Shown here piece by piece: positions 1,668 through 45,300 of a stretch of 64,000 bases of DNA. Within the stretch, counting starts at the first letter, position 1; the number at the start of each line of letters is the position of its first letter. Made by a program: the position numbers and the translations under genes. The stretch lies in the NCBI GenBank assembly GCA_000002445.1, contig CM000208.1, positions 832,001-896,000 on the forward strand. The letters are read 5' to 3'. A model generated the notes under the pieces. The model saw nothing but the letters and a program-made list of their open reading frames with translations. It was not told where the DNA came from and did no database searches. Origin of the DNA: Trypanosoma brucei (taxonomy: Eukaryota).

Positions 1668-2114
1668 ATGGCGAAAGGCAGAGACAGTACTGCTCATATG
1701 CGTGAATTTATCAAACGCCTCCGAGCCCGTTCCAACGTTTCTGAAAGTCCTCAGCCGCAAGAAGGGGAAGCGCCGCCCCGTTACGCTCGCTCTGCCATTA
1801 CTGGTGAGGTAAGAGTTGTTGGTCAAAAGGGACCTCTCACAACATCGTTTCCATCACCCCACCGCCGACTGTTGAGTCATGTGGAAAATATAACTGCCAC
1901 CACCACCTCGAAGCCCGAAGAACCTCCGCTGCCTCCTGCGCTTCAAATAGTGCCGGATGCCGCGGAATGGGAGCAGAACACCGGGACAAAACAACAAAGT
2001 TGCAGGGAGAAACCCGTAAACCCGGCAGCAAAGTCGGAGCCTCGACATGGTGCGAAAAAAGTCAGCAAATCAGGGAATGCCAGCGATGTATTGGAGAGAC
2101 ACAAGAAGCGATGA
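1668..2114 (+). CDS. hypothetical protein, 148 aa, non-repetitive, basic C-terminus
   Basis: ATG-initiated ORF (atg at 1668) with protein-like composition, lying between two polypyrimidine-rich spacers. No family recognised. Confidence 0.4.
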   Translation: MAKGRDSTAHMREFIKRLRARSNVSESPQPQEGEAPPRYARSAITGEVRVVGQKGPLTTSFPSPHRRLLSHVENITATTTSKPEEPPLPPALQIVPDAAEWEQNTGTKQQSCREKPVNPAAKSEPRHGAKKVSKSGNASDVLERHKKR

Positions 2115-2405
2115 AATGTCTAAGGTTGCAGCAAGCAGGAAAAAGAAGAAAAGAAAAGAGAAGAAAAGACACGAATGTTGCTCCGCGGCGCGAAAGTCTG
2201 AATATGAAACACATCAAGTATCAGAGTGATATCACAAGTTGGCGGAGTCGGGACTATTAAAGCATTGCTCTACATTTTTTCCCCCTCATCCGTGTTGTTG
2301 TGCCCTCGGTATCTTTTATAACCATTAGCGACAATGTGCGCGTGGGGGCAAATGGGTGGAGGGAAAGAACACGAGTATGTATATTTATATTTATTTATTT
2401 TATTG

Positions 2406-2441
<36 letters not shown>
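2406..2441. repeat. (TA)11 followed by (TG)7 microsatellite; further (TA)n tracts at 725-744, 1276-1300, 2990-3006, 4310-4330, 12527-12545, 18307-18320, 22545-22570, 29307-29330, 45652-45670, 46097-46116, 52335-52350
   Basis: Read directly. Nearly every intergenic spacer carries at least one (TA)6-12 tract. Confidence 0.9.
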
Positions 2442-4751
2442 AGGCTTATGTGTGTATATATGCGTGTATATACTCATACGTGTTATTGATAATGATTTTC
2501 CTCTTTTAGTTGTTGCTTTCGCTTAGTGCTGGGTTGGTGGTCAAGGTATTTAACCGTCCGCTCTCGCAGATATTTTTGTTTTTATTTTCAAAGCTGCTAT
2601 GATGTTATTTTTTTTTTTTACCATGTATATATGTATATTTATATCTTCTGTGTTTCTTGCGTCTAAAGCACTCTTTCTCAAACGATATTTTTATTCCCTG
2701 CGCGCATCGTCATTGGTATAATGCTTTCCTTCATTTAGCCTCGGATACTATTGTTTATGAGCACGTGGCAGTATCTTTTTTTTTTTTTACAAAAAGAAAA
2801 AGAAAAAGAGAAAGCAAAGAGATGGTTGGAAGAGAAGGGGAGTAAAAGGGTGTAGAGAGAGAGAAAGAGAGAAATGGACCGAGACTATTAGTTATAATCA
2901 GATGGAGAATTTATTTCATCCTTTTTTTTCTCATTTTTGTACCCCTTCCTGAATGTTATCTTCTAGTCAATGTTTTTTTTTATACAAATATATATATATA
3001 TATATGTATTTATATACGCTTATTTTTACTTTATTTTTCTTTTTGCTAGAATCTTTATTATTATTATTTGTGATTTTATGATGTGTGTCGTTTTTTCTTC
3101 TTTTCTTTTTGCATTTCAGTCGCTATCTTTTCCACGCGGTGGTGTTTGTACATTTTTGTCTGGTGATGCTAAAATACTGAGAATATTTTGTACAACTCGT
3201 CGCCACTCAAAGCTTCATCATGTGTATTGCAATTATTATTTATGCTTTGTCACGCTCTTTTATTATTATTATTCCCACACTATATTAATAAAGAAAAACG
3301 ATTATTTGTTTCTTTTTTTTTAAAAAAAAGCGGAAAAAAAGACAGTTTTTGCGTGCGTTTCCCTTTTTTTTGTTGTTGTTGTTGCTTTGTCATATCATTT
3401 TTTTTGACTACCCTCATTTTTTTTTATTTCTTCTGTTGTATGAGTGAGACAGAGGAGGGTAGTTGTTGCTCTTTTTTGTTTTTTTTCGTTTTCCCTTTCA
3501 CGTGTTGTTATACCTTTCAAGTCCTTTTTTCTTTTTTTTTTTTTAAAGGATAATAAAGGATTTGAGATGATGCTATTTGTATATATTTTCGTATTTGTCT
3601 TCTGTTTTTTTTTCTTTTCAGTTGCTTCAGGGAAGTTCCCCGGATGTGACTGCTGGATTTTCGTCGTAGTCTTTATTATTCCTTTTCCTTTTTCCTCATT
3701 TCCATCCTTCTGTCTCGCAGCATCGGTGATTTAAAAAAAAAAAAGAAATAGCAACCGATAAGTTATGGTGTGAGGGAGATTAGTTAGTGATGGAATGGGG
3801 ACGGGATGTGTTGGAGAAGTGATAATAATAAAAGAAAGAGATTAAATTTAATAAATACAAAAAAAAAAGCGACGGTGCAAGTGTATTCATGTAAAAGTAA
3901 TCCGTATCGCTGTTGGAGACAATATTCTCACCTTTTTTGTCTCCCTTCTTTTTTTTTAAAAAAAAAAACAATATGCTTTAACCATATTCCCACTAAATCA
4001 ATGACTAACTGACTACCTGTTTGTTTCCTCCTCATTTTTGCTATACGCATGTTTCCCTTCTTTTCTTTTCTCTTTTCCTTTCCTTTTTGTTTTGATTTAT
4101 TCTCTACTCACCATTCAGGTTCTTTGCATATAGATGTTCATATAAGGAATCTGATATGTGGTCAGGTAATTTTGACTAATGGTAGTAACATCCACATTTT
4201 ATGGACTCTTTCTTAATTATTTTTTTCTTTAAATAGTTTAACTACTCTGCGAGTGGACATTGCGAGAATTATTGAACCCTTGGCTAATAGATATATATTA
4301 TATGTATAAATAATATATATATATATATAATATATATTCATGTAATTTGTTTCGCCTGTGTGTTGCACTGGTACAGACCACCATAACTGATGTTACTACT
4401 AATGACAGTATTATTGTTGTCTCTACCTGCCACCTTTTTTTCTTTCTTTTTTTTTAAATACATTTTTTTTTTCCTGCACAGTCTTTTGACTCACGCGGAT
4501 ACGTGGTGAGGCATACAAGAGGAAGTTTTTTTTTTTAAAAAAAAGGGAGGAGGAAACTTGGAAGACGAAGGAAGGAGCTAAGAGTAGGCGAGGGAAGTAG
4601 AATTTGAGGCGTGTACGTATATTTGTGTGTGACAATAATAACATCGATATAAAAGGAAAACGAGTTGGAAACGGTTACGAGTAGGTTGACAGGAACAGGC
4701 GGAGGTCAAGTGATTAAGCTGTGTTTTTTTTTTTTTACACGCAACATAATA

Positions 4752-7079: not shown

Positions 7080-8003
7080 ATGCGATGTAGTTGCGCTTTT
7101 CTTGATAAGTCCGTGTTTGCGGCGAAGCGGCGTGTAATTGTGCCTATCCACCCGACACCGAACTTTCCTGCACATTTCATCAAATCAGCCTTCACAACAG
7201 ACCCGTTGAAGGAAAAGCAGAAGGCGCGTTTTTCCTCCGGTGGTGAGGCCATGCGTGAGGTTCAGGATATTCCCAAGAACCTCGAGGGTGAGCGATCAAG
7301 GCGGGACCTGGCCAGTCGCGGCGACACCGAGTTCCAAGCTCTTGTGGAATTCATAGAAGGTGCTTCATACGATCAACTTATCTCGGGGCGACGGTTTAAA
7401 AAGGTATATGACGTTTTATCGGAAAATGATGACATGTTCATTTGGTTGTGTCACACGGCAATGTCTGTCCTGAACCCAGGCGACATGCGGTCTCGCTTGA
7501 TATATAACCATCTGCGCATACTGGCAGAATCTGTCGCAAGTGGTGAGATGACTCAACGGACGGCGTTTCGCTTCTTTGAATCGGCAGTGCGCAGCCCAGC
7601 TTACCGTGAAATCGCAAAGCGGCAGCTCGAAGGTGGAGCGGCAACGCGACTCGCTGGCATTTCTGCAGCAGCAGACGTGATGCGACGAATGGGTCTTACA
7701 CGGCGGCCTATGTCATCATACTTTGAGTTGTATCAGCGGATTGTGGAGCGCTCCGAAGCCATGACACCGTGGGGATTTCCTCCATTGTTTCAATTTGAGG
7801 AGCGACTGTCGCTGGAGCCGCGGTTAAAGTTTTTCTCCCGTGCATCGCAACAATCACTTGAGCGGCGGCGGCGGGGGCATGTGATGACACCACACACAGC
7901 ACTTCACGGGCGACGCATATTCTGGATTCCACCCACGTGGAATCGTGCCGGTCGGTTCCTTGGCCCCCATGTGACACTTTACCCGGGAATGACTCCAGAT
8001 TGA
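7080..8003 (+). CDS. hypothetical protein, 307 aa (could alternatively start at internal Met, MREVQD about nt 7250)
   Basis: ATG-initiated long ORF with complex composition in a GC-rich block. Only small antisense shadow ORFs overlap it. Confidence 0.5.
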   Translation: MRCSCAFLDKSVFAAKRRVIVPIHPTPNFPAHFIKSAFTTDPLKEKQKARFSSGGEAMREVQDIPKNLEGERSRRDLASRGDTEFQALVEFIEGASYDQLISGRRFKKVYDVLSENDDMFIWLCHTAMSVLNPGDMRSRLIYNHLRILAESVASGEMTQRTAFRFFESAVRSPAYREIAKRQLEGGAATRLAGISAAADVMRRMGLTRRPMSSYFELYQRIVERSEAMTPWGFPPLFQFEERLSLEPRLKFFSRASQQSLERRRRGHVMTPHTALHGRRIFWIPPTWNRAGRFLGPHVTLYPGMTPD

Positions 8004-16052: not shown

Positions 16053-16518
16053 TTCTTATACGAGGTGCATGTGTTTCAGTTTTTCACAGGCATAATGCAG
16101 AGAAATACCTTTGCCCACATCCCCAACAATTGTTGTTGTCGCAGGCGACGGCGGTGTGGAGACAAAAGTTCTCCCACCATCTTTTTCACCTTTTACAATT
16201 ATTCGTGACGCTCATGTGTGATGTGCGGTTGTACACAGTTTCTCGTCGACGGATGTGGGTCCAACGTTTGAGTGTTGCGCGCACATGTGAGTCCATGGAA
16301 TAACAACGATGTCGTCTAAATATGGTGGAACTCAGTGCATATCTGAGTTATGTCTGCTCCACGGATTTCGAACGTGTGGACGCGTACGTTTAGGTCTGTA
16401 TACGTTCTGTAAATTTAGCTTTCTTTGGCCTCTTCCTTTCCTTCGGCGCATTTCTCTCTCCCTCTCCCTATATGGTAATGTCAATAGTAGGTTTTGACTA
16501 AGAGCTGGTGCCTACGGG

Positions 16519-18144
16519 ATGACAGAGGTAGCCGTTGATTGTTTCCCGACTCCAACCGTCAGCAGCCACAGTTTATCCAACGAAGTGAACAACAACGGGC
16601 GTGGTGGAGTGTCCTCTGGTGGCATGGTAGCGGTGGAAGACAAAGTGGCGCTGTTGCTGGCCGGTGCGAGGAAGTTGCTTGAGGAACCAACACCATCATT
16701 ATCGTGTCATGCCGAAGAGGTGTTGCCATGTGATGATGAGGAGGAGTGCCGACGCCGCTTGCGGTTTCTAGAGGCAGCCCATGCTTTTGTGGAGCAACAA
16801 CATGTAACTCAGAGGTATTTGAAGCGGGCTGTGGTTTCCTCACGATCAATAGGTGTGAACGCATGGACCAGCGAACAGACGCGAGGGGGCTTGCCTCACT
16901 GTTCAGCACGCGACTTGCCAGCAGTCGCTGTTATGATAGATGGGGAGCTAACTGATTGTGAAACTGAGGAGTGCCCAACAAGACACAACTTGTGCTTTTC
17001 CACTGTCTTACACATAAAGCCACGCGGTTTGTGGGCGAAGGACGCGGCTGTGCGGCGTCAGGGTCAGTACTGTAAGCAGTGCTTGGATCCGTTACACAGG
17101 TATAAGATCCCTCTTCCTGTGTGGAAGGAGGCTCGTTTTTGTTATTTCACTGGGATGTACTACTGTAATATGTGTAACTCTAGCCGCTATTCGGTGATTC
17201 CTGCGTTTGTTTTGAAGAAGTGGGATTTTAAACCGCGACCAGTGTGCAACGACGCGTATGAATTCTTGAAGTATCACCATAAGCATCCAATTTATCGCGT
17301 GTGTGCTCTTAATCCACGACTATACGAGCGAGTGGCACTGCTGCGGGTGGCCCGGAACCTGCGATCGCAGTTGATGAAATTGCGTGATGTGGGCATGAAG
17401 TGTGCTGTGCTGCGTCACCTTCTCTACCTTCACGACGCTCCTGTCGAACTTGAAAGGGACAGCAATCGTCGCCCCTCCAGAACCACAACCAACGCCTCAG
17501 CTACCAACCATGTAGCCACCTTTGTTGCCAGTGATGGTGATGCCGCCTCGTTTGCCGCTGATTGCTACGTGCCACGCACCCGGCGGTATTTATTGGAGAA
17601 CTGTGAACTTTGGTCATTATCTGACCTTGAGGATGTACGCCGTGGGCAGTTGTTGTTCCGTCAGGAGAGCGCTGGGCGCACAATGGCTTTTATAAAAGAT
17701 ACTTCCCTTATCTCGCAGTTGGCGGCATACAGCAAAGGTACAGCCGCTTTGTGTGGTGAATGCGATACGACTGTTTACCTCAAGCAAGTGCGATCTCGAA
17801 TTTTACGGCACATTCTTGTACACAGTTGTGCGACTTGCCTTGTTAATAGTGTTGACGTGTGTAGCATCTGTTGCCCTGCGGAGGTGGCTCAAAAGTTAGA
17901 GTGCATTAATGAGCAAACTCGAGGAGGTACACCGTTCGGAACCTGTGAGCATTTTTTTGGCTCGTTGATCAAAGATGTTTCAGTGTTGCCTTTTCTTGTT
18001 TATGTTTTCGACACATTGCATGTGTTCTGTTGCACCGGGTGTGGTAGTGCTTATCACAGACGCTGTTTTAAGGAAATGCAACATACCAAGGGCGATTTAA
18101 CATGCTGCCCGCGCTGCAGAGCAACACAGTTGATAAAAGAGTGA
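16519..18144 (+). CDS. Rubicon-homology (RH) domain / DEF8-like cysteine-rich zinc-finger protein, 541 aa
   Basis: FCYFTGMYYCNMCNSSRYSVIPAFVLKKWDFKPRPVCNDAYEFL matches the DEF8/Rubicon/PLEKHM1 RH-domain core ([44 protein letters not shown]). The C-terminal Cys/His cluster (CATCLV...CSICCP...CCTGCGSAYHRRCF...CCPRCRA) matches the RH zinc fingers. Confidence 0.8.
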   Translation: MTEVAVDCFPTPTVSSHSLSNEVNNNGRGGVSSGGMVAVEDKVALLLAGARKLLEEPTPSLSCHAEEVLPCDDEEECRRRLRFLEAAHAFVEQQHVTQRYLKRAVVSSRSIGVNAWTSEQTRGGLPHCSARDLPAVAVMIDGELTDCETEECPTRHNLCFSTVLHIKPRGLWAKDAAVRRQGQYCKQCLDPLHRYKIPLPVWKEARFCYFTGMYYCNMCNSSRYSVIPAFVLKKWDFKPRPVCNDAYEFLKYHHKHPIYRVCALNPRLYERVALLRVARNLRSQLMKLRDVGMKCAVLRHLLYLHDAPVELERDSNRRPSRTTTNASATNHVATFVASDGDAASFAADCYVPRTRRYLLENCELWSLSDLEDVRRGQLLFRQESAGRTMAFIKDTSLISQLAAYSKGTAALCGECDTTVYLKQVRSRILRHILVHSCATCLVNSVDVCSICCPAEVAQKLECINEQTRGGTPFGTCEHFFGSLIKDVSVLPFLVYVFDTLHVFCCTGCGSAYHRRCFKEMQHTKGDLTCCPRCRATQLIKE

Positions 18145-19198: not shown

Positions 19199-22039
19199 AT
19201 GAGTACCGAGAACGAGGGCGAATCAAAAGAAAACCCCTCGTATCTCACTGTAGAATTAGAGCATGTCGGCCATGTCTCCATCGATGCAATTGAGCACCAC
19301 TACATGGAGTTGCAAAAGGAACTAGCGATGGAGCCACATTTGCGACCACTGCGTGAGGAATATGAGAAGATCCACCGCCTCCTCCGTAAAAGTCACGATG
19401 GGGAGAAGCGCTTGATGGCAAAGATAAAGGAATTAGATCATGACTTGATTACACATGCGGCGAACGTTGAAAGTGCGCTGAAACTCGCTCGGCAAGATGA
19501 GGACGTGATTGAGGCCCTGAGGAGGGAAATAGAAAAGGCCTGGTCACTTGCTGACAGCGCGCATGCTCGTGAAAAGGAAACGCGGGAACAAATACAGGAG
19601 TTGCGCCAGCAGGTGGTGCGTCTTAATGGGTTAGTGGATAAAAACACAAGCAGTACATTGGGACAGGAAAACTTTCTCCGCGATCTTATTAAGGCGAAGA
19701 AAGAGTTTGAAAACGAGCGTCTAATGGCACAAGCTAAGGCGGAGCGGCTCGTGGATGAACGGCTATTTGCTCAGAGGAAGATGCACAAACTGCGAGAGGA
19801 TAGTGAATGTGTGCGGCATAGCCTTGAGAACACGCTCAAGAACTATGAAGGCTGTCTACGTAACCTCTCCGATACCAAACGGGATCGCGAGAGTCTGGAG
19901 CAGCAGGTGCGGGAGTACCGTGTAGAAGCGGATGAACATTTGAAAGAGATAGCAAGCGTCCGTCAATCGGTGGCCGAGTTAGCAAAAGAGGAGGAAAAGC
20001 TGAAAGCACTTGCGCTTTCAGAACGGGATTCTGTGGGGCAATTAGCTAAGCAATTGGAAGAACAACAGGACCGATTTAAGAAAGAGGCTGACAAACTTGC
20101 CGCTGTTGAGGCGCACAATGCAGAAATGAAGCAGGAGATACCAAAGATGAGAATGACGCTAAAGGGCCGGCATGCAGAGGTGGAGCGACTTGCCTTATCC
20201 TTACGAAAGGCTCGTAAAGGAGCCGGGGTCCAGCAGACCGAAATAGACAAGCAGATGCAGACGAGGGCTTCGCTGATGGAACAAACGGAGAAAATGCACA
20301 CCGCTATTGAAGAGCTTCTGCGTACATTAGACGACCACGTCAAAGCGTTGCATGATGAAGAGGTCCGATTGAAGGGAGCCATGCCCATAAAAACAAAACT
20401 CCTCACTGAAAATTCGCGCGTTGATAGTGAGAAGGCTATGATGGAGGGCCAGCGGATGCTGGAAGAGGGTAAGCGACGTAACTTAACCCAACAACTAGAA
20501 AAACTTCTTCGGGATAACGAAACAATGCGAAAGAAAATATTTGAACTGGAACAAAATCAGGCGAAAATCCTTGACAATGGACAGCGAGAGGCTTTGCAGT
20601 ATCATCGGGTGCTTGAGCAAACACGTAAGCAACAAGGACAGGCTAAGTTACTGCAGCAGCAGTTGGAGGACAATGAAAAGCGTCTTAAAGCGCAACAGGA
20701 TTTGCTTGACCGAGTCTCCGCAGACCGCGCACGAACGGAAAAGCGGTTGAAGGAAAGTGAACTTGAGTGTTCTGGGTTGAAGCAGCGGTATAATCACAAT
20801 GGGGAGGAGATTCAGTTGTTGAAGATGCAAATTATAGGCAAGGAGGGCGCACTTTGCCGCATTCATATGGTACGCAAGCAACTTCAGCGTGACATCGCCA
20901 ATGCTGAGGAGCGCGCAAGCCACCTGAAGGAAGACGGTACGAGCGCTACCAACCGCTACGAGACGCTAAAGGGAGAGGTAAAGCAACTCAGTCACTTAAT
21001 AGCCGAGTGTGACGCAGAGAAGAGTAAGTACCAATCTAAATTTGCTGCACTTGTTAACGAACGGAATGTACTTGCTACCCAGTTGGTTCGTCGTAACGAA
21101 GAGCTGCGCCTCCTCCACAGCAAAATACGTTTGCAGGAGTGTAGTATTGAAAAAGGTGCGGAGGACTACAACAAGCGTGTGCGGGCTGTGATGGGGAAGC
21201 GAAGTGAACTTGAAGAGCTGCGACTGCGTTGTCGAGTTGCCCTTGCCCGCATGCTTCACGCGGAAAAACTGAGACGGCGAAAACAAAAAATCGAGCGTGA
21301 CCTCTTTACTGAAAAGCGTCGCTCTCGTGCCCTCGCTGACGAGCTTCAACGTCCTGTAAATGTGCACCGATGGCGGCGACTTGAAGGCAATGCCCCCGAG
21401 ATTCTCGACGGCATTTACAAAGTTCACACTCTAGAACGACAGATACTTAAGAAACAAGATTTGCTCGTGGAAAAGACAAAACAATTGGCTGCTCGCAATG
21501 CAGAATATGAGACTGTTAGGAAAAAGCTTGCCGAACTTCAAGGCCCGGAGGTAGCGGGGGAGTTGAGCTTATATGACGAAAACTTGCAATGTCGTCGCGA
21601 ACAAATACGGGGTCTTGACACCGAACTTCAGGAGGTTGAACAGCACGTGGACGTAGTGGCTGAGGAAGTGAAGCAACTGACAGTAGAGTTATGTGAGGTA
21701 AAGCGGCGGTATTATAATGCGAAGCATAAGAATGACCTGCTCCGCCGTGAGCAAGGTGCTTTCCGCGCCATGTGGGGTGGGTCTTCAGCGGTCGCTAGGA
21801 CTGCACTCGCCGCAATCGAAAACGCTTCGGAGCGCCGGCAGCTCCAGCAACAAGGATCAATTTCCAGTCGTCGGCAACCGCTATGGCGCACGCGGGCGCA
21901 AAAGCGCCGCGAGCAAATTAAACAGGAGGAACAAATCGTTCAGGTACTATCGACTGGTGCACCAGCGCCAAGTTTTCCTCTTCAAGTCCCACCAGGTCAG
22001 CGCATTTTCTTGGGGGGTGGTTTTGCGCTAACTCGGTGA
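19199..22039 (+). CDS. large coiled-coil protein (946 aa), probably cytoskeletal or flagellum/basal-body associated
   Basis: Heptad-rich E/K/R/L/Q composition continues for about 850 aa (strings like LKEIASVRQSVAELAKEEEKLKAL). No enzymatic motifs. Confidence 0.75.
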   Translation: MSTENEGESKENPSYLTVELEHVGHVSIDAIEHHYMELQKELAMEPHLRPLREEYEKIHRLLRKSHDGEKRLMAKIKELDHDLITHAANVESALKLARQDEDVIEALRREIEKAWSLADSAHAREKETREQIQELRQQVVRLNGLVDKNTSSTLGQENFLRDLIKAKKEFENERLMAQAKAERLVDERLFAQRKMHKLREDSECVRHSLENTLKNYEGCLRNLSDTKRDRESLEQQVREYRVEADEHLKEIASVRQSVAELAKEEEKLKALALSERDSVGQLAKQLEEQQDRFKKEADKLAAVEAHNAEMKQEIPKMRMTLKGRHAEVERLALSLRKARKGAGVQQTEIDKQMQTRASLMEQTEKMHTAIEELLRTLDDHVKALHDEEVRLKGAMPIKTKLLTENSRVDSEKAMMEGQRMLEEGKRRNLTQQLEKLLRDNETMRKKIFELEQNQAKILDNGQREALQYHRVLEQTRKQQGQAKLLQQQLEDNEKRLKAQQDLLDRVSADRARTEKRLKESELECSGLKQRYNHNGEEIQLLKMQIIGKEGALCRIHMVRKQLQRDIANAEERASHLKEDGTSATNRYETLKGEVKQLSHLIAECDAEKSKYQSKFAALVNERNVLATQLVRRNEELRLLHSKIRLQECSIEKGAEDYNKRVRAVMGKRSELEELRLRCRVALARMLHAEKLRRRKQKIERDLFTEKRRSRALADELQRPVNVHRWRRLEGNAPEILDGIYKVHTLERQILKKQDLLVEKTKQLAARNAEYETVRKKLAELQGPEVAGELSLYDENLQCRREQIRGLDTELQEVEQHVDVVAEEVKQLTVELCEVKRRYYNAKHKNDLLRREQGAFRAMWGGSSAVARTALAAIENASERRQLQQQGSISSRRQPLWRTRAQKRREQIKQEEQIVQVLSTGAPAPSFPLQVPPGQRIFLGGGFALTR

Positions 22040-22849: not shown

Positions 22850-24520
22850 ATGCGAGGGTGTGCAAAAGGCATCGGTGCTATATTTGCTGCTGATGCCTCG
22901 AATCATGTAAGGGGGAAATCCGTGAACGCGGATGAGAGCTGCTTTGGTGTTTTTCAAAATATGCATATCAACCCTTTTCCCGTTCGCGCCGCTATTGACA
23001 TTGGTACTGGTGGAATGATTACCATGGTGGTTGCTCGCGTTGACGCCGCAGCCAACGCCGTGCGCAATTTCATGTATCAGACGCAGCTACCGTTACACCT
23101 GGAATCTGTAGCCGCAGGGTTGGGCGACTCATCATCGTTCGTTCTTTCCGAAGCAACTCGAGCGGACATACGCAATAAAATGCGTGTGTTTCACGGTGCA
23201 CTCCGTCGTGATAATTATGATGGTCTTAGCGAACGTGCCGCTGTTATGTCGTGGCCGCTGTGCGAAGCCGCTGATGCACTGGCGTTAGCTGAGGACCTAA
23301 CGCGTGAGTTTAAGGTGGATGTGCGTGTTCTGGGGAAAACGTTTAATGTAAGTATGCCGTTCTGTGGTTCAGTTGGGTTATCAGCTAATGCGAGCCAGGA
23401 ATCAATGGAGGTTGACGTGCGGCGGGGTAGGCGCTGTTCTAATGCCTGCACCACTGCTGTTACTGGCGGCAGTGAAAGCGGTTCTGTTCAGTCTTTCTTG
23501 CATCATACTAATCGTCGTCGGAAGGAAAGGCAAGCGAAATTAGATTCACAGCGAGAGGTGCGTACTGTTACTGATGGTGATCGTGTGCCCAATGTACCGG
23601 CAGCTCAGCAGATGGAGCAGTTGGCCTTCCTTGCGCACGCCGCTGTGAGCAAGTGTGTTGCTCCGCAACGCTTGCTCATTCTTGCGGAGGATTGTCATAA
23701 AGGAATATGTGTGCTAGGCGCAGATACAGCTGAACCCGAAGAAGTAACCGACGACGAGACGGCGGCTAACACTAAAGGTATCAACAATAATAGCAAGGAT
23801 GCCGTTACGCACCAAGGAGTTGGGTCACCCACTGGATTACTTGTACATGCGTTGCCGGTCGATTTAGCGATGGCACACCGACTATTGGTTACGACGGTGC
23901 AACGTCGGTCGCAAACTACGGATGAAGGCGCCAACCAACGAAGCCCCAACCCTGTTCTTCGTGAGGAGTTTAGGAGGTTGCGCTGTCTGTTGGAGGAGGC
24001 AATGCACCACACATTGCCTCAGTGGGTTCTTGATAAGTCAAACACTGGTGGGGTCATATGTGGGTCAAGTTTTAACGGTGGCGTGCTAAACGTCGCTGCA
24101 CGAATAGCCCAGCGGTCTAGTGTCTCATTGGATCACCTCGAGACGCATGCGGAGATGCACTATTGTGGTTTAACGGATGTTCTGATGTCAGTCAACTATC
24201 CTAACGCGGCGACGGTAATACCCTGTGCTGCGCTGGCCAGTGCATTGTTACGGTCATTAGATGCACAGCGGTTTGAATATCTACCCGAGGTTCATATTCC
24301 TGCTGCTCTCCTCCTTCAGCCCTCACTGTGGACGTACACAAGGCGTGATCAGGTACGGAAGGCATTGAAGCAAAAACCATTTTACGCGGCCGGGAGCCTG
24401 CGGCGCACATTTCAGCGTCCCCACGCACGTGAAAATCCAACAGCTGCTCCAACGGCTTCGTGGCAGAAGAACAAGGAGTGGAATGCACTCTCATACGACA
24501 ATAGCACGAAAGGTACTTGA
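22850..24520 (+). CDS. ASKHA-fold (Ppx/GppA exopolyphosphatase-like) domain protein, 556 aa; alternative start ATG at 22961
   Basis: The N-terminal motif AAIDIGTGGMITMVVARVD resembles the Ppx/GppA phosphate-1 motif (AAIDLGSNSFHMVIAR). The rest is a divergent long extension. Confidence 0.5.
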   Translation: MRGCAKGIGAIFAADASNHVRGKSVNADESCFGVFQNMHINPFPVRAAIDIGTGGMITMVVARVDAAANAVRNFMYQTQLPLHLESVAAGLGDSSSFVLSEATRADIRNKMRVFHGALRRDNYDGLSERAAVMSWPLCEAADALALAEDLTREFKVDVRVLGKTFNVSMPFCGSVGLSANASQESMEVDVRRGRRCSNACTTAVTGGSESGSVQSFLHHTNRRRKERQAKLDSQREVRTVTDGDRVPNVPAAQQMEQLAFLAHAAVSKCVAPQRLLILAEDCHKGICVLGADTAEPEEVTDDETAANTKGINNNSKDAVTHQGVGSPTGLLVHALPVDLAMAHRLLVTTVQRRSQTTDEGANQRSPNPVLREEFRRLRCLLEEAMHHTLPQWVLDKSNTGGVICGSSFNGGVLNVAARIAQRSSVSLDHLETHAEMHYCGLTDVLMSVNYPNAATVIPCAALASALLRSLDAQRFEYLPEVHIPAALLLQPSLWTYTRRDQVRKALKQKPFYAAGSLRRTFQRPHARENPTAAPTASWQKNKEWNALSYDNSTKGT

Positions 24521-24870
24521 ATGTCGAAGTAGAAGGGGAAATGGGAGTAATGGTAGCGCTATCCTCCACTCCCCTGCCTCGTTCGCGCTCACTTCATATC
24601 CAATTCGCACATTGTGTGCGGTTGTATCATACCATTCCCCCCGTATTAAAGTTTCAGCGATACGTCATTGGAGTTTCGGTTCTGCAGACACTGATAACGC
24701 CAGCTCTCTTAGTACCCTTTCTCCCTTCTAATATATGGTGTTCATGCCACTTACTGGCGTTCCCGCCTCTTTTATGCTGCATTAAAAAAAGAAAACTATT
24801 CGTTACCTCCATCTCAATGCACGTTGGTGCGTGTGTGAAAAATCGTTTGTGTTCAGGTTAAGTTGTGTGT

Positions 24871-25920
24871 ATGCTTCTTATAGTGTTCGTAGTCGGATTT
24901 CTGCTCCTTCTTACTGCGTTCGTTGCACTGCAACTGCGGAGGAGTCAACAGTTCCCGACATTTAGCGATGCAACCCCATCTCGAGTTGCGGCGAGGCGTT
25001 CAGAAACGCGACGGAGTCAATACAATGACGGAGATTATTGGAGTAATGAAAGTTCTGATGAGGGTAGCGACGACGATGATAATGATGACTGTGAAGTAGG
25101 CCACAAACGTGAAGAGAGGCGTAAGCTGCGCGGTGGAACCAGTGGCAGCGCCGGACCATTGCGGCACCGCCGCACGAGGCGCGGTGCAGGGAATGCTGCT
25201 GAGGCAGACGGGGACGGTGAGGAAGATAAAAATGGTTCTCAGACGAAATTATCTCGATTACAAAGAAAGAAACAAGAAAAAGAGAGAGAACGACAGGAGC
25301 GGCAGCAGGCGCAGGAAGCACTGCTAGAGAATCGGCGAGTGAAGCAGGAGGAGGAGCAGCGGCAACAGAAAGACCGCGAGCGTGAAGAGAGGGAGCGAGA
25401 GATTGCCGAAGAAGCAGCACTGCAGGAGTTGCGCGAGGAAAAAAAGCGTCAAGAAGATGAGGAGTATGCAAAGTGGGTTGAAGGCATTGGGGTGGTAGAG
25501 CGCGGTGAAATTGGAGACGAGGAGCGAAAGAAGCATGACAATCTTGTCAAGTACTTAATCACCATGGCGGGTAACGGCGGTGAGCGCCAACAGCAGCGGG
25601 TGATTGATGCAGAAAACTTTGGTGAGGGTGAGAAGGTCGGTGACGAGACAATAACAAGGGGTACCGAGTCAAGCAGCCGTGGAAATATACTGATTCTCAA
25701 CGACGTCGCACGAACGCATGGGTTGTCAGTGGAAGTCACTGTTCAGGTGATAGAAAAGCTTTTGGAGGACGGTGTTATCAGCGGTGTTTTTGATGACCGT
25801 GGAAAGTTTGTTATGCTTTCCGAGGAGCACTATAAGCAAATCGCAGAGTTTGTTAAACTCCGCGGCCGCGTTTCGATGAAGGAGCTTGCACGAGAGTGTA
25901 ACAGGATAATCATGTTGTGA
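24871..25920 (+). CDS. DDRGK1: DDRGK-domain protein (DDRGK1/UFBP1 homologue; ER-anchored UFMylation adaptor), about 349 aa
   Basis: ORF-track start 24865 is GTG; the ATG is at 24871. There is an N-terminal TM anchor (MLLIVFVVGFLLLLTAFVALQL), a long charged E/R/K/Q-rich helix, and a C-terminal winged-helix region with DDRGK motif (DGVISGVFDDRGKFVMLSEEHYKQIAEFVKLRGRVSMKELARECNRI). This closely parallels human DDRGK1 ([42 protein letters not shown]). Confidence 0.8.
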   Translation: MLLIVFVVGFLLLLTAFVALQLRRSQQFPTFSDATPSRVAARRSETRRSQYNDGDYWSNESSDEGSDDDDNDDCEVGHKREERRKLRGGTSGSAGPLRHRRTRRGAGNAAEADGDGEEDKNGSQTKLSRLQRKKQEKERERQERQQAQEALLENRRVKQEEEQRQQKDREREEREREIAEEAALQELREEKKRQEDEEYAKWVEGIGVVERGEIGDEERKKHDNLVKYLITMAGNGGERQQQRVIDAENFGEGEKVGDETITRGTESSSRGNILILNDVARTHGLSVEVTVQVIEKLLEDGVISGVFDDRGKFVMLSEEHYKQIAEFVKLRGRVSMKELARECNRIIML

Positions 25921-29336: not shown

Positions 29337-31909
29337 TTGTGTCTACGAGGTTCTGTTTTCTTAGCATCCCCTTCTCATCTTTGTGTTTGATTTAGCAGTT
29401 TTATGCTGGTGGTGCAGTTTTGGTACGTCTTTTTCTTCCATCTGTTATGTGAGCCATGTGAGAGTGAAAGGGATCGGAATTTATTTTGCAGGAATTGTTG
29501 CAGATACGAAGCGGCTAAACGTTGATACGTTACGGTGTGTTGGTTGTAAAATGAGGGGTAGCTGCTGATCTTCACTTGTGCATGCTTCGTTGCTTGCGCC
29601 CTTTTTTTTCTTTTTTCCCACAAATACTTTATGTTTCCTACTTTTAGTGGGTGCATCGCCACCGAGGTGCATTTTGCAAAGAGAAAAAGAAAAGACTGTA
29701 AAGTGGCTGTGCCTCACTTTTAAGTGGGAGCAAAATGGTTTGTTGTTAGTTAATGTACATGCTGAGGGAACTGTGTAGATGAGGGGGGAAATAGTCACAT
29801 GAGTAGGTTGTAATAACGGAACTAAGTTTTTGTAAACTCTTGTGGCGTTAGGGTAGAAAGAGAGGGGGAAATAAAGAATTACTTAAAATAATACAACTTT
29901 AGAGCACCATATACCAAGAATCCACAACTAGGGAAGATGCTTATTTAGTTTCCTTTTTTTTTAAATTTGCGCATGTGTTTGCTCTATTGATTTGAAGGAA
30001 GAAGTGAGGAAATGTATGCTAATAAATTTGTTACCTATGAATGTATGGAGGAGGGGTGTGGGGAGAGAAAATGCGTAAGTATTGTTCGCTCGTGGTATCG
30101 AGTACAGCACCGTGGTAGGCATCCTTCTATCGTGTTTATACTCGTAAAACTTATTTACTTTTTTGTTTATATATTTTGCTTATTGTTTTTTTTTAAAATA
30201 TTCTTCCTACTTCATCTCCGATATGTCATAACAATGAATCAGTGGAGGTAGGACTACCATATGCGCATACTCATGCAACCGTAGTACATATATGTAATTA
30301 TAAGTATGATATAATACTATTAACTATTTCACGCATAACTCGTGCAGTTGGTCACAATAATCTTCCAGACCATTTTTTTATTTTTCTTTTCAAATAGCCT
30401 TACCACTCGCGACATCCACTGAGACATCGAGCCAACTATTATTGTTATTATTTTTATCATAAACGTTACTATATTTATTCATCTACTTGGTTTGATTTCT
30501 TTCAGTTTTGATTCATTATGTTTATTGCTTTGGTGGATAGGTAGCATTTGCCTTACCTCCTTGCATATATGTTTAATGAAAAGAAAAAATAAAAGAAAAA
30601 AAAGCAACTGGAAGCTCCACCATTCAAATATCTCTTCCATCTTTTCTTTTCTGATGGTAATTTTATATTTAAAAAAAATGTGTTTTCTCCCTCCCTCCCC
30701 CTTTCCCTTTTTCTAGCAATCGATGTTTCTTCTCTTCTCTTTTCTTTTTTTTGTTTTTACCCGTCTCTGATTTTTTTTTTTTGAGGGAAAAATTTAGGGT
30801 GTCGGTATATTTACTCCCCTCTTCTCTCCCTTCCTTTCCTTTCCTTTCTTTCATTCTTTTGTTTTACAGGTGATCAACATAAAAAAATAGGACGATTTAG
30901 AAGTTTTAATGAGTCTGTGTCCAATATTTTTATTGGAGATTTGCTGAAGTGGAAATACCAAATCACCCTTGTGAATGAGAGAAAAATGGCAAAATCAAAT
31001 ACAAAAAAGAAGAAAAAGCCAAAATCAAATACAACAAGGAATTAAATTTATTTGTTTATTTAAAGACTATATGGCTTCTGGTCCATGTGTCAGTTAAGGC
31101 GTGTGAGGAAATATTAAATTGTGATGTATGATATCACATTATGGTGCGTGCGAACTGGACCATGTTATGCTCATTTTCTTTTATTTTTAATGAGGGGAGA
31201 TCATTTAATACTCCATTAATTTTCCTCAGTGATGTAATTTGCGTGGGCAGCTCTGCTTTATGTCGTGTTTATCATGGAAGCGTGTGTTTGTGTGTGGGAC
31301 ACAACGACAAAATATGATCCGTGTGGTTAAATACTGATACAAATGTATGCACATATGTAATATCGTTACTTAAAGTTGTGATAATTTAGTTGGAGTTTAG
31401 TAGAGATTTATTTCTTTCGTTTTCTCCCCCTTCATCTGGTGTGTTCCTGTTGTTGTTTCCCTATTTTTTTTTGTGTGGTAGCAGGCATATTCCAGCCCTT
31501 TTATTCTTTATTTTTATGTCGGAGAACCGCTTACTGGTGTCTGTTTTTTTTTAATTTTTAAATTTCGCACACACTATTGTTATCTAAGTTAATTCTTACC
31601 TCCTTGCTCTCTTTATTAATTTAATTTTTTTTTTGTGTCGAAAAGCGGTGAAACCGTCTGGAGTCATAAAGATGCATCTGCAAGCCCGGAAGTATTCCCT
31701 TTCTTCTCCGTATGTTTCTTGTTGTTCGTTTTTCTGCTGCTGCTGTTGCTTACTGGAAAGAGGGAAAAGAAAATTTAAAAAAATTACTCTTAACCTACTT
31801 TGGGGAAATAAGCAAACTAACTATACAGAGAAAGCGAAGAAGAAGAAATACAAAGAGGGAAAAAGAAAAGGGGGGGAAAAAAAAGAGGTGACAAGTGCGT
31901 CAAAAAGGG

Positions 31910-33547
31910 ATGTGCCAAACTTTAACTACGGACGGTCTGTCAGGTGAGGTGAGGCCCGCTTTCACTGAAGAGGAACAAAATCCCAACAGATGCAGCGATG
32001 ACTCCGGTGATGGCGTCAATTCAATGGAAACTCGAATGAAGGGAGATCCATGGCGTTTTGCTGTTGCTGCTATATTTTGCCTATTGTCCATTTCAAATGC
32101 CATGCAGTGGATTGCATTTGCTTCAATATTCGATGAAACACGTACCTATTTCAATATGACTGCCGTGCAAGTGAACTACCTTGCAACAACATACGTCATC
32201 GCTTACGTTGTTGCTGTGTTCCTCAGTTGTAAGTTGTTTGAGGTAACTGGACTAAAAGCGGGAATCCTTATTGCGGCGACAGCCAATGCTATTGGTGCAA
32301 GTATTAAACTTGTTGCAGTGTATGCATGGCCACATATGATTCTTTTGTTTCTCGCCCAGGCCTTTAACTCTGTAACAGAAATTCTCACGATTGCAACCCC
32401 GCCACTCATTGCTAATCGATGGTTTCCCGTGGAGGAACGTGTGGCCGCCAACGCTGTAATGACCATTTGTCTCAATGTAGGTTGTGGTTTGGGTGCATTA
32501 ATTCCCGTTTTCTTCGTTAGTCCTGAGAAACAGGAACAGCGCCACTTTGCTGCTCTCTTTTGGTTTCAATTTGGTCTATGTGCCGGCACGTTTGCACTTA
32601 CCTTTATTATTCCCCAGCTCCCACGGCAATCACCAAGCTACGCTGCTGACAGACAACAGAAAATGGAGGCGAAACGTTTGAGAACCTTACGTGAACGCCA
32701 GAACCGTCAAAGTGGTGCCGGAGCTCCCGCTGAAACGCAACCACCACTTGAAGTAGTAGAGGATGATAGACTAAATATGTATGACGATGATGATGTCGAG
32801 TCTGTCGCAGAACCCATCAATGTCTTCTCCACGCTGGGGGACACTTTCCGAGCGATGAGAACTAATTCCTCCTTTGTTTTTCTCTCAATTGCAAGCGCCG
32901 CAGAACTCGGTCTCATTTGGTCCGTGGCGACGGTGCTTCCGCAGTGCCTTGTGCCATTTGGTGTAACTGGATCCGAATCGGGGTGGATAAGTTTCCTGAA
33001 TCTTGTACTTGGCAGTGTTATAGCCCCAATTGTCATGCATTACTTTGGCCAAAATTGGAGGCACAAGCAGTCACTGCTTGTTATCTCTATCATACTTGTT
33101 GTAAATGTTTGCGCTTTGTGCCTTTGCTACTATTTTGGTCCTTCTGGCGACGACCACCGTATTTACTATGTCGTAGTTGTATTCCTTCTTTGGGGTGGAG
33201 TAGCCGGGCTTTGCCAAAACTTCATGTTGCCCATCATGTTTGATTTCGTTGTTGAGTTAACTTTCCCTATGAGGGAGTCCACAAGCGCACCAGTACTGAC
33301 GTGGGCGGCATGTTTGTCTAATTTGGTGTTGACCGTAGTTTTTGGTGAAGTGCTTGGGGAGAATCCTACGCGAACTGATTCAGCAAAGGTGCTTCTGGGA
33401 ACCGTCATTGTGTGTATTATCGGATGCGTTGCGCTCGTGTTGGTTCGCCCTCTCAAGAGGAGGGAGGAATTTGAACATCGTATGGAAGAGTTGGATCGTG
33501 CGGCATTGCAACTTCCGCAAGATGCCTCACACGAGAGAGTCAGATGA
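31910..33547 (+). CDS. multi-pass membrane transporter, MFS-like (about 12 TM helices with a central hydrophilic loop); alternative start at 32024 (METRMKG)
   Basis: ORF-track start 31895 is GTG; the first ATG is at 31910. Two six-helix hydrophobic bundles are separated by a charged loop (residues about 250-300), the typical MFS topology. Confidence 0.65.
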   Translation: MCQTLTTDGLSGEVRPAFTEEEQNPNRCSDDSGDGVNSMETRMKGDPWRFAVAAIFCLLSISNAMQWIAFASIFDETRTYFNMTAVQVNYLATTYVIAYVVAVFLSCKLFEVTGLKAGILIAATANAIGASIKLVAVYAWPHMILLFLAQAFNSVTEILTIATPPLIANRWFPVEERVAANAVMTICLNVGCGLGALIPVFFVSPEKQEQRHFAALFWFQFGLCAGTFALTFIIPQLPRQSPSYAADRQQKMEAKRLRTLRERQNRQSGAGAPAETQPPLEVVEDDRLNMYDDDDVESVAEPINVFSTLGDTFRAMRTNSSFVFLSIASAAELGLIWSVATVLPQCLVPFGVTGSESGWISFLNLVLGSVIAPIVMHYFGQNWRHKQSLLVISIILVVNVCALCLCYYFGPSGDDHRIYYVVVVFLLWGGVAGLCQNFMLPIMFDFVVELTFPMRESTSAPVLTWAACLSNLVLTVVFGEVLGENPTRTDSAKVLLGTVIVCIIGCVALVLVRPLKRREEFEHRMEELDRAALQLPQDASHERVR

Positions 33548-35907
33548 GACTCGCTGATGTTGTGTTTAGTGAGGTGCTCCATACATCAAATAAATGAATA
33601 TTTATTAATTTATTATTGTTTATTTACGCGTTATATAAACCGAAGTGTTTGTTTTTGTATTTGTTTAAAACCGTTTGCTTATAGGGAGCAAATGGAGCAT
33701 GATGGAAGAAAAAAATAAATAAGGACACATAGTGAGACTGATTGTGCTGTAATTGTGCGGTTGTGTGTTTTCTGTCACATCTGAAGAAAAGATAAGGTTC
33801 TTCTATTTTTTTATTTTTTCTACCGAAAGGGCGTAGTTTCCAAACAACGGCGGCGGCCTTTTGCAGTTGTGGAAGAAGGTGGGAAGGGAGTGGGAGGGGG
33901 ACGAGGTGTGTTACTGCTTTTAGTGAGAAAATATATGAGCACCGCATATATATTCTACCTTACTTTTTTTTCTATTCTTTTCTTGTTGCCACTCGCTCGT
34001 GGACTGTTGTCTAAACACACAGACAAATGTATATAATATATATATACTTATATATTTATTAATTTATTTATAATTGTGTCTGTATTTATATGTATGTTTG
34101 GTAACTGATCATGTGAAAGGAGGAAAAGGGAGATACGGCGGTGGAAGAGGAGAACGAAATAATAGAACGAAAATAAATGAAAAAGGAAAGGAAAAATGGA
34201 CATGAAGTGAGGTGAGAGGCAAATCACATTAAATCGAACACGAAATTTAGTAGAGTTTGTCATTGTTTGTGTTAGGGTGCTTGGAGGGAGAAAAGAAAGG
34301 TTTTTTTTTGTAGTGGTAGGAATGTTATAAACAGCCAAAATACATTAAGTGTGCCTTGCGTTCTCAGTTCTCAAGGGATTAGCACATTTACCTTTTTTTC
34401 TTCGTTTTATTTTGTTATTTCATGTGTGAGCACTTGTTCTCCCTTTTTTTTTCCCGCTTTTTTTTCCTGGTTCCTTAACTAACTCTCGTCGGCAATTCAG
34501 TCCTCGGTACCAGAGTATTTTTTTTTAATTTTTAGATAGGTTACTAACCCTTAATTACCCTCCTTAGTGAATTTCTACTTTTGTTTGCTTTTTTTAAATA
34601 TTATCTTTCATTTTTATTTTTATTTTTTACAATGCGGCGGGCGATGATACAAAAAAAAAAGAATTTCTCTCCCATGCTTCTTTTACTGTTTCATGTGTCA
34701 ACGCTGTGATACGTTATTATTGTTATCCGTTTATGCTCACATTTAAGCAGACGTGTGAAAGAAAGCAAAAAGGAAAAAGAAGTTTGGTAAAATGTTTGTT
34801 GAACGCATGCTACTGTATAACTTTATTTCGCATATCTGCATTTATTAACTCGTTGTTTCTTAGATTATATATTTGGTTTCCTTTTTTGTCTTTTTCTTTT
34901 ATTAAAGGGTAAAGTTGTTGTTTGCTGTTGTTTAGAATCAACATTCTCCCCCTCCTCCCCTCAATACTTGAAGCGGTAGTCACTCTTCTTCCTTTCCTTT
35001 CATGGATTCGTGACAAAAAAAAATTACCTCATGGAGGTATTAAAATGCGAAATGTTCCGTTTCACTCATTTCACTTCTCTGTGAAATTTTGTGTGGATGC
35101 AGAGATTCCTGTTCTTGCGGATGCGGGTATATATATAAATATATTTATATTACTTCTGATTATTTAGCAAATTGATGCAAGAGCATCATGGCTTGTAAGG
35201 CATGACTGTTAAGATTTCCTTTCGTTTCCTAAAGTGAAAATAATGAATATATGCGTTATTCCATCACTGAAGCATAGACATGAGCAGGTGCCACATGTTT
35301 GGACTGTGCTTCAACATATTGTTTGCGTTTGAATGTCGATTGGAGGTTTCGTTATTTGATTTAAACCTCTGTAAATTCTATAGGGTCTTCACTTTAGCTC
35401 GGGCAGAACGCAGTGAAAGTGAGGGATCTGTGGAACGAGGCAGCCGGCACTGTGTGGTTGGTGGTTTCGGTTCCTGAAACTTTGTGTATTTAAAAAAAGG
35501 AAATCACACACATAATCGTCACTATGAGCAATACATAGTGTGGCAGGTGTGTGGTTATTTATTGATTTATTTCGAATCTTCAGTATATGCAAGTTTTTTG
35601 GTACTTAAACGTCGCTACAACTGAAGTAGAGGTTCCTTCGTTTCCCCAATATTAGCTGTGTGGAAGAGGAGTTACTCCATATGTGGTGTTACGTGAGGAT
35701 TCTTCGGTTAATGAATCCATTTATATTCGAGAAAAGAAGTGATTTTTTTTCTTTGCTTCGATGTCTGATCTGCTGCGCTGGAAACTAAGGGAGTGTGGTT
35801 GTTGTCGTACTTCTCACATATACCTTCCCTTTTTCACATTGTTTGTTGTTGTCAATTATCCATATCAAAAGTTAAAGCGCAGGTAATAATTACATTAATA
35901 AAATCTC

Positions 35908-41076: not shown

Positions 41077-41481
41077 GCACCCGTTTTGGCGGCTTCGGTC
41101 GCCGTTGGTGTAGCTGGACACGTGGACGGCAACTTTTATTTCTTCCCCCTTTTTTCGCTTTCATCATTTTATTTACTGCATATTGTTCTTCGTCTTTGGG
41201 ACCAATGTGGTCGCGAAACGCATGCCGTCCGTACGCACTGTCAGATACTCGCTGCTCTTGTTCAACCGTATTTCATTCAATGAAATTGTTGGCACTATAC
41301 CCAATTTGTAATAATGATAATAATTATAACGACTTCATGCTATAGATTCGAGGTGGATTAGTAGTTTCATACCCTCTGTCATTTTTTGTCGTGTTGCCGG
41401 AAGGCGAGACAGGTAACTCCAATTAATACGATTGTTCCAACACAATCGGGGCGCCAAAGCATCCAGTTTCGCAGAGCCGCT

Positions 41482-44400: not shown

Positions 44401-45300
44401 CTGTTGGATTCGTCGACAAGAAAAAGCAACGAACTGTTTATGCCCTCTCCAACAAGCCCATTTCATCTAGGGGATAAGAGGCAATCATCATCAGCGTTTG
44501 CTCCGGATCTTTCGTTTGACTTCTCTGCCTTTAATTCGGAGACATTGTACGCTACAAAGCAACTGGTGAGGGAACTTACGGAACGTGAGGAGAAATGGAG
44601 GCGAGCTACTGAGGACGATTCACTGCCTCCAAACACAGAAGAATGTGGCATTAGCGTCTTGCCTTGGGGAGCTCGAAAGTTGCTTCACGATCGGCTGCCG
44701 CTCATGTGGCAGTTTGCACCGTGGCGCCTTATATACGGTACGCGTTTCCACGGTTATAGTTACTCTAATATGATAAACGCGTGCCAGCGCGAAGTCAACA
44801 ACGCTAAGAGGGACGGGAAGCAGCCGAAAATGATATTGTTACTGGAGCTAGACATGTCAGCAGTGTGTTTGGAGGATGTCGTGACTGAAGAGGGAAACGA
44901 AAAAAAAGGAGGGTTCGTGATTGGTGTATGTATGTCACATCCTCTTTCTTTGGACAATAGGAGATTTTACGGTGGGAGCACAACGTTTGTTTTTCAAATA
45001 CGTATTCCTCCTTCTCCACAGGAACCCGCAATCCGAACCTTCCACGCCACGGGGAGGAATGAAAAGTTCATAAATTGTACTCCCCAAAGAATTGCCATAG
45101 GTGGAGGAGGTGGCTGTAGCCTTTTTCTCAGTAACTCTATTTCTAGTGGTTCCACTGCTGCATGCGTCACGTTTGACTCCCCACCACTAACGCACTGGAG
45201 AGATCCATCGTTGCCGTCGTTGAGCGCCGGTCCTTCCACCTCAGATAGCGTGAGCAGCTTTGATATTCGGACTGTTGAGGTGATTGTCGTTGGAGAGTAG
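41482..45300 (+). CDS. large TLDc-domain protein (TBC/LysM-associated, OXR1/NCOA7-like domain at the C-terminus), about 1272 aa
   Basis: ORF-track start 41386 is TTG; the first ATG is at 41482 (MSGRGGSR). The C-terminal 230 aa carry TLDc hallmarks: LPLMWQFAPWRLIYGTRFHGYSYSNMINAC ... GGFVIGVCMSH ... TFVFQI ... RIAIGGGGGCSLFLSNSISSGSTAACVTFDSPPL. Confidence 0.8.
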   Translation: MSGRGGSRAQSPCVTPSRCFLTNPFKISPAQTPKTTYLMRILGESIRRSSNVVATVAATVVLLEDDGFSTNSEFLMKWWRMLERCLGELAGVVNSCEENIREKDMRVLLALSHGFALAAQLSSLERRFLACLHRFAEVCEGAETVGAGEKLSGALSDITSLLKGEETILVAIRRQEANYIEKAIALQEEVFRVGEEGEPFFGKVEEPETRRTYLGSLWHALTAPFDDSEEVNNEQLVAADGGDWSQLISTFGSGGGASVCNWDDSMLLNSIVECAFASAEQQHTLLSERNFAVALFLFSTKCNVLEELVEVCFQLRLGNGGLFGFEKLMYTDVSSQRERTVDWLSTILSPLREDVLHLELCDGNPKPPYFVAVVFLTLLWNTTYCMWKRGCIREAYEWLRVVDLGQLRRMAKAEDERGMKREISPESGVNSEAEDVGNVQEELKYTGSLSWDYIVHRAAGCPGPDRAKQVHRHSEVDFRHDRSGQLMWFVHHISCLRNACALALLCSTPHDVMYIISKFHHSRRWQWRQCVYLHESAKDAGANLSAEFGVVDSKFEVLSLTNFIVENYLARRSVRMYHFRSPPSPRKATSSDTTIEGSVVHVCDELICSMSYGRFSGVKEMEEAMFSELFGACCEGEIGEETGGEATTEGDDGSQRRLNWLEVHVAKVAVAFARDFRGNIYFQNAWVGTERGARSEKHSGGGAEEASWSSVLPLVKGLHGSAAHPPMPTDAGGGNQPINACSQGTTHHEFEKEPQGLLRHVSCMVPVRMTPPRVEHQAENERCTLWLPSRKGVGLLLLPEETDVNGEYDSFGEVALRLLVIACRYCDSMKLLPLHSRFSHHAVPEAGRVDAENNDHLSGWDSCHALLPSVVHELNVGLSLITDELRSSAGGDVLSVWHQQRDSSISRFRLNHLVSVTLHGLCSDALTSIELQMREESSVISARCTISQAVGAVQESDQGELTVIDSCSTPRDLLLDSSTRKSNELFMPSPTSPFHLGDKRQSSSAFAPDLSFDFSAFNSETLYATKQLVRELTEREEKWRRATEDDSLPPNTEECGISVLPWGARKLLHDRLPLMWQFAPWRLIYGTRFHGYSYSNMINACQREVNNAKRDGKQPKMILLLELDMSAVCLEDVVTEEGNEKKGGFVIGVCMSHPLSLDNRRFYGGSTTFVFQIRIPPSPQEPAIRTFHATGRNEKFINCTPQRIAIGGGGGCSLFLSNSISSGSTAACVTFDSPPLTHWRDPSLPSLSAGPSTSDSVSSFDIRTVEVIVVGE

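Follow-up and report, generated by a model that had tools for sequence, protein, structure and literature searches.

What does the gene at positions 16519..18144 of this stretch encode, and does its product belong with the proteins that act together with Rab7 on late endosomes and lysosomes? The stretch comprises 64,000 nucleotides of the Trypanosoma brucei genome (contig CM000208.1, positions 832,001 to 896,000 of the forward strand) and is referred to below, at its full length, as the window. The gene is a complete coding sequence on the + strand, 541 amino acids (aa) plus stop, and its translation is identical at 541/541 positions to XP_822581.1 / EAN77753.1 / UniProt Q38BR7 of T. b. brucei TREU927. 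The original prediction, made from the DNA letters, had described the product as a DEF8-like zinc-finger protein with a Rubicon homology (RH) domain and as a conserved Rab7-effector module. Among the proteins that carry RH domains, DEF8 consists of C1 and RH, PLEKHM1 has the arrangement RUN-PH-PH-C1-RH, and on late endosomes and lysosomes each of the two is associated with Rab7. We conclude that Q38BR7 is, with near certainty, an RH-domain protein, and that the terms "conserved Rab7-effector module" and "DEF8-like" go beyond the evidence.

The Pfam profile RH_dom (PF13901, DUF4206) matches Q38BR7 at 101.3 bits against a gathering cutoff of 28.1 (E=8.9e-29), and nothing else in the protein is significant. 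When the PDB was searched with phmmer, the sole match below E=0.1 was the RH domain of human Rubicon (6WCW_A, E=5.7e-13), aligned over aa 202-316 with one single-residue gap. A phmmer search of 1.84 billion cluster representatives returned 1104 relatives at E up to 1e-3, and in the best 150 of these RH_dom was recognized by Pfam without exception (150/150); when 100 of the relatives were combined into a profile, each half of the domain gave a match to it (aa 130-301, 156 bits; aa 353-535, E=1.9e-13). All 16 of the family-conserved Cys and His residues are present, namely C185, C188, C216 and C219, which form the FYVE-like zinc cluster 1, C295, and the two C-terminal groups listed in Table 1 (H431 to C451 and C505 to C533). 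At each of these ligand positions the residue is shared by 45 or more of 50 relatives, C208 is conserved as well, and both the C-terminal RH signature of nine Cys and one His and the four-cluster ligand set of Rubicon are found. The predicted fold has the L-shape of the Rubicon RH crystal structure, with a FYVE-like cluster, a helical stalk and three clustered zinc sites. Residues ~148-541 are a complete RH domain, made up of the FYVE-like Cys4 cluster, the helical stalk and three more C-terminal zinc clusters, zinc binding being predicted. The original prediction had made RH membership depend on a profile or structure search of the C-terminus, and it is borne out by the Pfam score and by the agreement of the predicted fold, together with the match to the solved Rubicon domain, with the RH assignment. 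That Q38BR7 merely carries a chance or generic Cys-rich zinc finger of the PHD, RING, C1 or FYVE type, with a superficial likeness to RH, is by now scarcely credible, the RH_dom score and the predicted fold having effectively refuted it; the two-zinc fold of FYVE domains, with its WxxD, R(R/K)HHCR and RVC motifs, is not found in Q38BR7. Clusters 2 and 3 of Rubicon have been given as Cys2His2 (PMC7382272), whereas only two His are conserved family-wide. Two faint matches, to internalin B leucine-rich repeats at aa 303-426 (PDB phmmer, E ~0.1-0.2) and to zf-RING_15 (Pfam, E=0.28), were judged to be noise.

The domain is stretched, occupying ~390 aa in Q38BR7 against ~250 aa in Rubicon. A block of about 45 residues and the terminal Cys/His cluster, which spans aa 431-533, had been described as nearly collinear with RH; the resemblance is indeed far beyond chance, but simple collinearity does not hold, as three insertions of ~40 aa each interrupt it. 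The boundary of the domain also had to be moved. Conservation of RH sets in at about aa 148-185, the profile match begins at about aa 130-150, and the first CxxC of cluster 1 is C185/C188; the N-terminal 200 residues that had been said to lack a partner domain are indeed devoid of RUN and PH, but the domain-free part measures ~147 aa, the RH domain starting some 50 residues earlier than supposed. Residues 1-147 hold only scattered Cys and His and two predicted helices. Compared with human Rubicon (RUBCN, 6WCW; Bhargava et al., 2020, PMC7382272), Q38BR7 lacks the RUN and PI3K-binding domains, contains the three insertions, has a truncated helix alpha13, and shows the replacements T825K, R827A, L883T, K887N, F889V, R934A and R938I as well as Asn in place of H751. 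The equivalent of H751 is His in >90% of relatives, T. congolense included, and aa 220 (17176-17178), after the second CxxC of cluster 1, is Asn in the T. brucei group and in Cryptobia.

To which branch of the family the protein belongs can be judged from its partner domains. No RUN, PH, C1 or Rubicon PI3K-binding domain (PF21054) was detected in Q38BR7 with Pfam, RUN, PF21054 and C1 having been sought at E up to 10. Ahead of RH, the protein shows neither the RUN and/or PF21054 of the Rubicon/Pacer subfamily nor the C1 zinc finger of the DEF8 subfamily. Among the best 150 relatives, RUN occurs in 23, RUBC_PIKBD in 24 and C1_1 in 7, and none of the top 50 carries C1_1 (0/50). A loose C1 regular expression, which also matched the C-terminal zinc region of RH itself, served solely to single out proteins that it matched twice. 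One could take Q38BR7 for an outright orthologue of DEF8, corresponding in trypanosomes to the metazoan C1+RH protein whose working partners are PLEKHM1 and Rab7: the size (541 aa) is near that of DEF8, RUN and PH are absent, and RH stands at the C-terminus, as it does in both DEF8 and PLEKHM1. We nevertheless consider such orthology very improbable, given the missing C1, the scarcity of C1_1 among the closest relatives, the fact that Rubicon-like proteins score as high as C1+RH ones, and the retention by DEF8-like relatives of Rab7-contact residues that Q38BR7 lacks. The protein is best described as a generic RH-only protein; "DEF8-like" applies only in the loose sense of being small and free of RUN and PH, and the label could not be upheld in any stricter one.

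Even so described, the protein may be recruited by, or act as an effector of, a Rab7-family GTPase, a tentative reading to which analogy lends somewhat less than an even chance. If the analogy with the RH domains of Rubicon, Pacer, PLEKHM1 and DEF8 holds, the L-shaped domain would use its base to dock onto the switch regions of a late-endosomal Rab in the GTP-bound state, for which TbRab7 (Tb927.9.11000) and the Rab7-like paralogue that T. brucei also possesses (Tb927.8.4620) are candidates. Rab7 has been placed on late endosomes in T. brucei (PMC8377397). Docking would bring the RH protein to late endosomes or lysosomes, where the two N-terminal helices might then recruit or sequester a partner, and the outcome would be a tuning of endosome-lysosome or autophagosome-lysosome traffic. 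The joint statement, which couples an RH-domain protein with a Rab7-family effector model at late endosomes/lysosomes, appears to us evenly balanced.

A number of observations weigh against such an effector role. Rubicon takes hold of Rab7-GTP at Switch II and helix alpha3, using its zinc clusters 2-4, the stalk end and the Arg-rich C-terminal helix alpha13, and the mutations T825D, L883D, K887D and F889D, as well as a four-Arg-to-Asp mutant, abolish both colocalization with Rab7 and inhibition of autophagy (PMC7382272). The Rab7 contacts defined by 6WCW (n=16) were mapped onto Q38BR7 with the invariant Cys as anchors, the 6WCW sequence having been recovered from its alignment with sea-urchin Rubicon and numbered as chain position + 695 (Table 1); Q895 and E897 could be placed only with uncertainty, as insertion 3 sits between the two anchors used for them. 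Only one of the 16 contacts is identical (R532) and about four are conservative, which falls short of the contact conservation that characterizes RH proteins acting as Rab7 effectors. A Cys-anchored motif scan took in 80 relatives with a complete C-terminal zinc motif, 69 from outside Trypanosoma and 11 from within it, the latter amounting effectively to about six independent species, since five of the 11 are near-identical T. brucei-group entries. Position 887 is Lys or Arg in 57/69 of the non-Trypanosoma sequences and in 0/11 of those from Trypanosoma, which have Asn throughout (11/11), and position 934 is basic in 59/69 against 2/11. The 39 residues of insertion 3 lie within the contact loop, between the equivalents of C894 and I900. 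The T. brucei protein stops 8 residues past the last zinc ligand, and the T. congolense orthologue 1 residue past it, and therefore the basic, Arg-rich helix alpha13 is essentially missing; its truncated counterpart, the C-terminal helix at aa 531-540, is short and mostly non-basic. With the PI3K-binding region absent, there is no support for a Rubicon-type inhibition of the Vps34 complex, and binding of Q38BR7 to any Rab is suggested purely by homology.

These features fit a second reading, namely that the RH fold has been kept while the Rab7 interface has been re-tooled, either for another partner (a small GTPase, a lipid or a kinetoplastid-specific protein) or for binding Rab7 differently by way of inserted helices. 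The basic and hydrophobic contacts found family-wide have been replaced, and N443, S444 and D446 are invariant in Trypanosoma, which suggests a surface that is constrained but different. A spacer of at least 25 aa between the C894 and C912 equivalents occurs in 11/11 Trypanosoma sequences, where it measures 53-75 aa, and in 5/69 of the others, and the truncation of alpha13 points in the same direction. In the alignment, the C1+RH, DEF8-like relatives retain L883, R887, R931, R934 and R938; therefore the loss does not reflect general divergence of the family, and the replacement of contact residues in Trypanosoma appears, from these comparisons, to be something other than ordinary family drift. 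On the other hand, Rab switch regions can co-evolve with their effectors, no result points to an alternative partner, and the sequence of insertion 3, which is absent from the Cryptobia orthologue and from 64/69 other relatives, is variable across Trypanosoma, as would be expected of a tolerated loop and not of a new interface. We regard re-tooling as a serious rival reading, at roughly one chance in three. Its narrower form, in which the Trypanosoma RH domain has been re-targeted, whether to another GTPase (such as the Rab7-like Tb927.8.4620 of kinetoplastids) or to a non-Rab partner, is rather unlikely; if true, it would be the first example of an RH domain with changed specificity and would provide a way into the trypanosome endosomal system, which is unusual and continuous. 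The Trypanosoma-specific remodelling of the surface equivalent to the Rab7-binding one of Rubicon is the sole feature that goes beyond routine annotation, and it is mildly interesting.

Orthologues or close relatives are found in T. congolense (G0UVU6), T. vivax (G0U5X2), T. theileri (A0A1X0P9P5), T. grayi (XP_009310719.1), T. conorhini (A0A3S5IT72) and Phytomonas sp. EM1 (CCW64010.1), and among the transcripts of Cryptobia (Trypanoplasma) borreli, the prokinetoplastid Papus ankaliazontas and the diplonemid Flectonema neradi; since they span these lineages, the RH gene is conserved across Euglenozoa. The RH-only architecture is common to all of these proteins, and their lengths range from 511 to 918 aa owing to variable N-termini and insertions. 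The members from Trypanosoma share with T. brucei the N-terminal helices, the N443/S444/D446 loop and the large contact-loop spacer, whereas the Cryptobia protein is without insertion 3 and has Lys at the K887 position. In the literature searched, none of the euglenozoan RH-only proteins has been characterized, and publications combining RH, DUF4206, Rubicon, DEF8 or PLEKHM1 with trypanosomes or protists included no study of Q38BR7 or of any protist RH protein and no data on where Q38BR7 is localized or what it interacts with, the Rubicon of protist-autophagy reviews being the protein of the host. The RH protein class has been called "metazoan" (PMC7382272); the trypanosome protein shows that the domain is not confined to animals. 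STX17 and SNAP29 have been reported missing in T. brucei (bioRxiv 10.1101/2024.11.27.625582), and the late steps of autophagy there differ from the animal model. No characterized T. brucei Rab7 effector turned up in our literature searches, which were not designed to survey such effectors. Being conserved across the group, the RH protein is a reasonable candidate for a part in late-endosome, lysosome or autophagosome biology. Nothing in the analysis overturns expectations, and Q38BR7 is a real, ordinary and unstudied member of a known domain family.

Table 1. Features of the RH gene and its product in the window, and equivalents of the Rab7 contacts of human Rubicon (pLDDT, predicted local distance difference test).
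Feature	Window positions	Strand	Residues in Q38BR7	Remarks
Polypyrimidine-rich tract, then AG dinucleotides	16419..16471	+		~50-100 nucleotides 5' of the ATG; read from the sequence
N-terminal region, no Pfam domain	16519..16959	+	1-147	mostly low-confidence or disordered
Two long predicted helices	16621-16839	+	35-55, 73-107	conserved among Trypanosoma orthologues
RH domain, N-terminal half	16960..17433	+	148-305	pLDDT 90-98; zinc cluster 1, WDF/IPA block, helical stalk with C295
44-aa block FCYFTGMYYCNMCNSSRYSVIPAFVLKKWDFKPRPVCNDAYEFL	17137..17268	+	207-250	best-conserved part of the RH family
Insertion 1 relative to human Rubicon	17434..17559	+	306-347	Ser/Thr/Ala-rich; predicted disordered, pLDDT <50 at aa 312-342
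Conserved RH motif YLLENxELWSLSDLEDVRRG	17560..17646	+	348-376	corresponds to Rubicon HLTEDLHLYSLNDL
Insertion 2	17647..17760	+	377-414	two short predicted helices, moderate confidence
Stalk-return helix and first part of zinc clusters 2-4	17761..17874	+	415-452	H431, C437, C440, C448, C451; includes the equivalent of the Rab7-contacting Rubicon loop 883-890
Insertion 3	17875..17991	+	453-491 (39 aa)	in the Rab7-contact loop, flanked by the equivalents of Rubicon C894 and I900
Last part of zinc clusters 2-4 and C-terminal helix	17992..18141	+	492-541	C505, C508, H513, C516, C530, C533
Equivalent of Rubicon N821			D290	
Equivalent of Rubicon M822			V291	
Equivalent of Rubicon T825			K294	
Equivalent of Rubicon R827			A296	
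Equivalent of Rubicon L883			T439	
Equivalent of Rubicon A886			V442	
Equivalent of Rubicon K887			N443	
Equivalent of Rubicon F889			V445	
Equivalent of Rubicon I890			V447	
Equivalent of Rubicon Q895			C452	mapping uncertain
Equivalent of Rubicon E897			A454	mapping uncertain
Equivalent of Rubicon I900			L493	
Equivalent of Rubicon R931			R532	identical
Equivalent of Rubicon R934			A535	
Equivalent of Rubicon R938			I539	
Equivalent of Rubicon R939			K540	

The RH/DUF4206 assignment of Q38BR7 is not new, as it already stands in the automatic annotation of UniProt, InterPro, NCBI and UniRef. The public names of the protein are "hypothetical protein, conserved", "protein of unknown function (DUF4206)" and, in UniRef, "Rubicon Homology domain-containing protein"; the twin entry from T. 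equiperdum, labelled "DUF4206" at NCBI, differs from the T. brucei protein by a single replacement, G142E. The gene is taken to sit on chromosome 10 of T. brucei, with which the T. b. equiperdum locus tag DPX39_100039300 fits. The tract upstream of the ATG looks like a typical trypanosomatid trans-splicing signal, to judge by its composition. In the window, the long open reading frames (ORFs) lie nearly all on the + strand and the GC content is ~45%, which fits a trypanosomatid polycistronic unit.

Directly downstream of the RH gene, 19199-22039 (+) codes for a coiled-coil protein of 946 aa, in which the CFAP58 central coiled-coil domain is recognized (73 bits) and which is probably flagellar or axonemal; because the two genes stand in a trypanosome polycistron, their adjacency implies no functional link. 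For the 556-aa ORF at 22850-24520 (+), the match to the class I/II aminotransferase profile is confined to the C-terminal third of that profile and barely clears the threshold (21.5 bits, cutoff 19.7); the ORF may encode a degenerate or highly divergent aminotransferase-like protein. The ORF at 24865-25920 (+) contains a DDRGK domain (88.8 bits), which makes its product a candidate for a DDRGK1/UFBP1-like part of the UFMylation pathway, and, farther on, the ORF of 1304 aa at 41386-45300 (+) has a TLDc domain at its C-terminus (71 bits), preceded by ~1100 aa that carry no Pfam annotation. Two overlapping ORFs in different frames, 58338-59018 and 58856-60763 (+), both contain ankyrin repeats (Pfam Ank_2/Ank_4); the first frame becomes nonsense-like at about the point where the second takes up the ankyrin sequence, and the second also has a DHHC match below threshold (20.2 bits against a cutoff of 28.7). 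The region 58338-60763 resembles the gene of an Akr1-like palmitoyltransferase of the ankyrin-DHHC type that a frameshift has split, for which a pseudogene, a strain variant or an assembly error would be possible explanations. Five ORFs of 307-940 aa gave no Pfam match at E up to 1e-3 (35908-38730, 47300-48697, 55320-57182, 61350-63416 and 7080-8003, all +) and likely encode kinetoplastid-specific or highly divergent proteins. The AT-rich stretches at 2001-4000, 30001-32000, 34001-36000 and 50001-54000, with 31-36% GC against ~45-50% in coding regions, are presumably long untranslated or intergenic regions, and at 30980-31041 a 30-bp unit is repeated twice.
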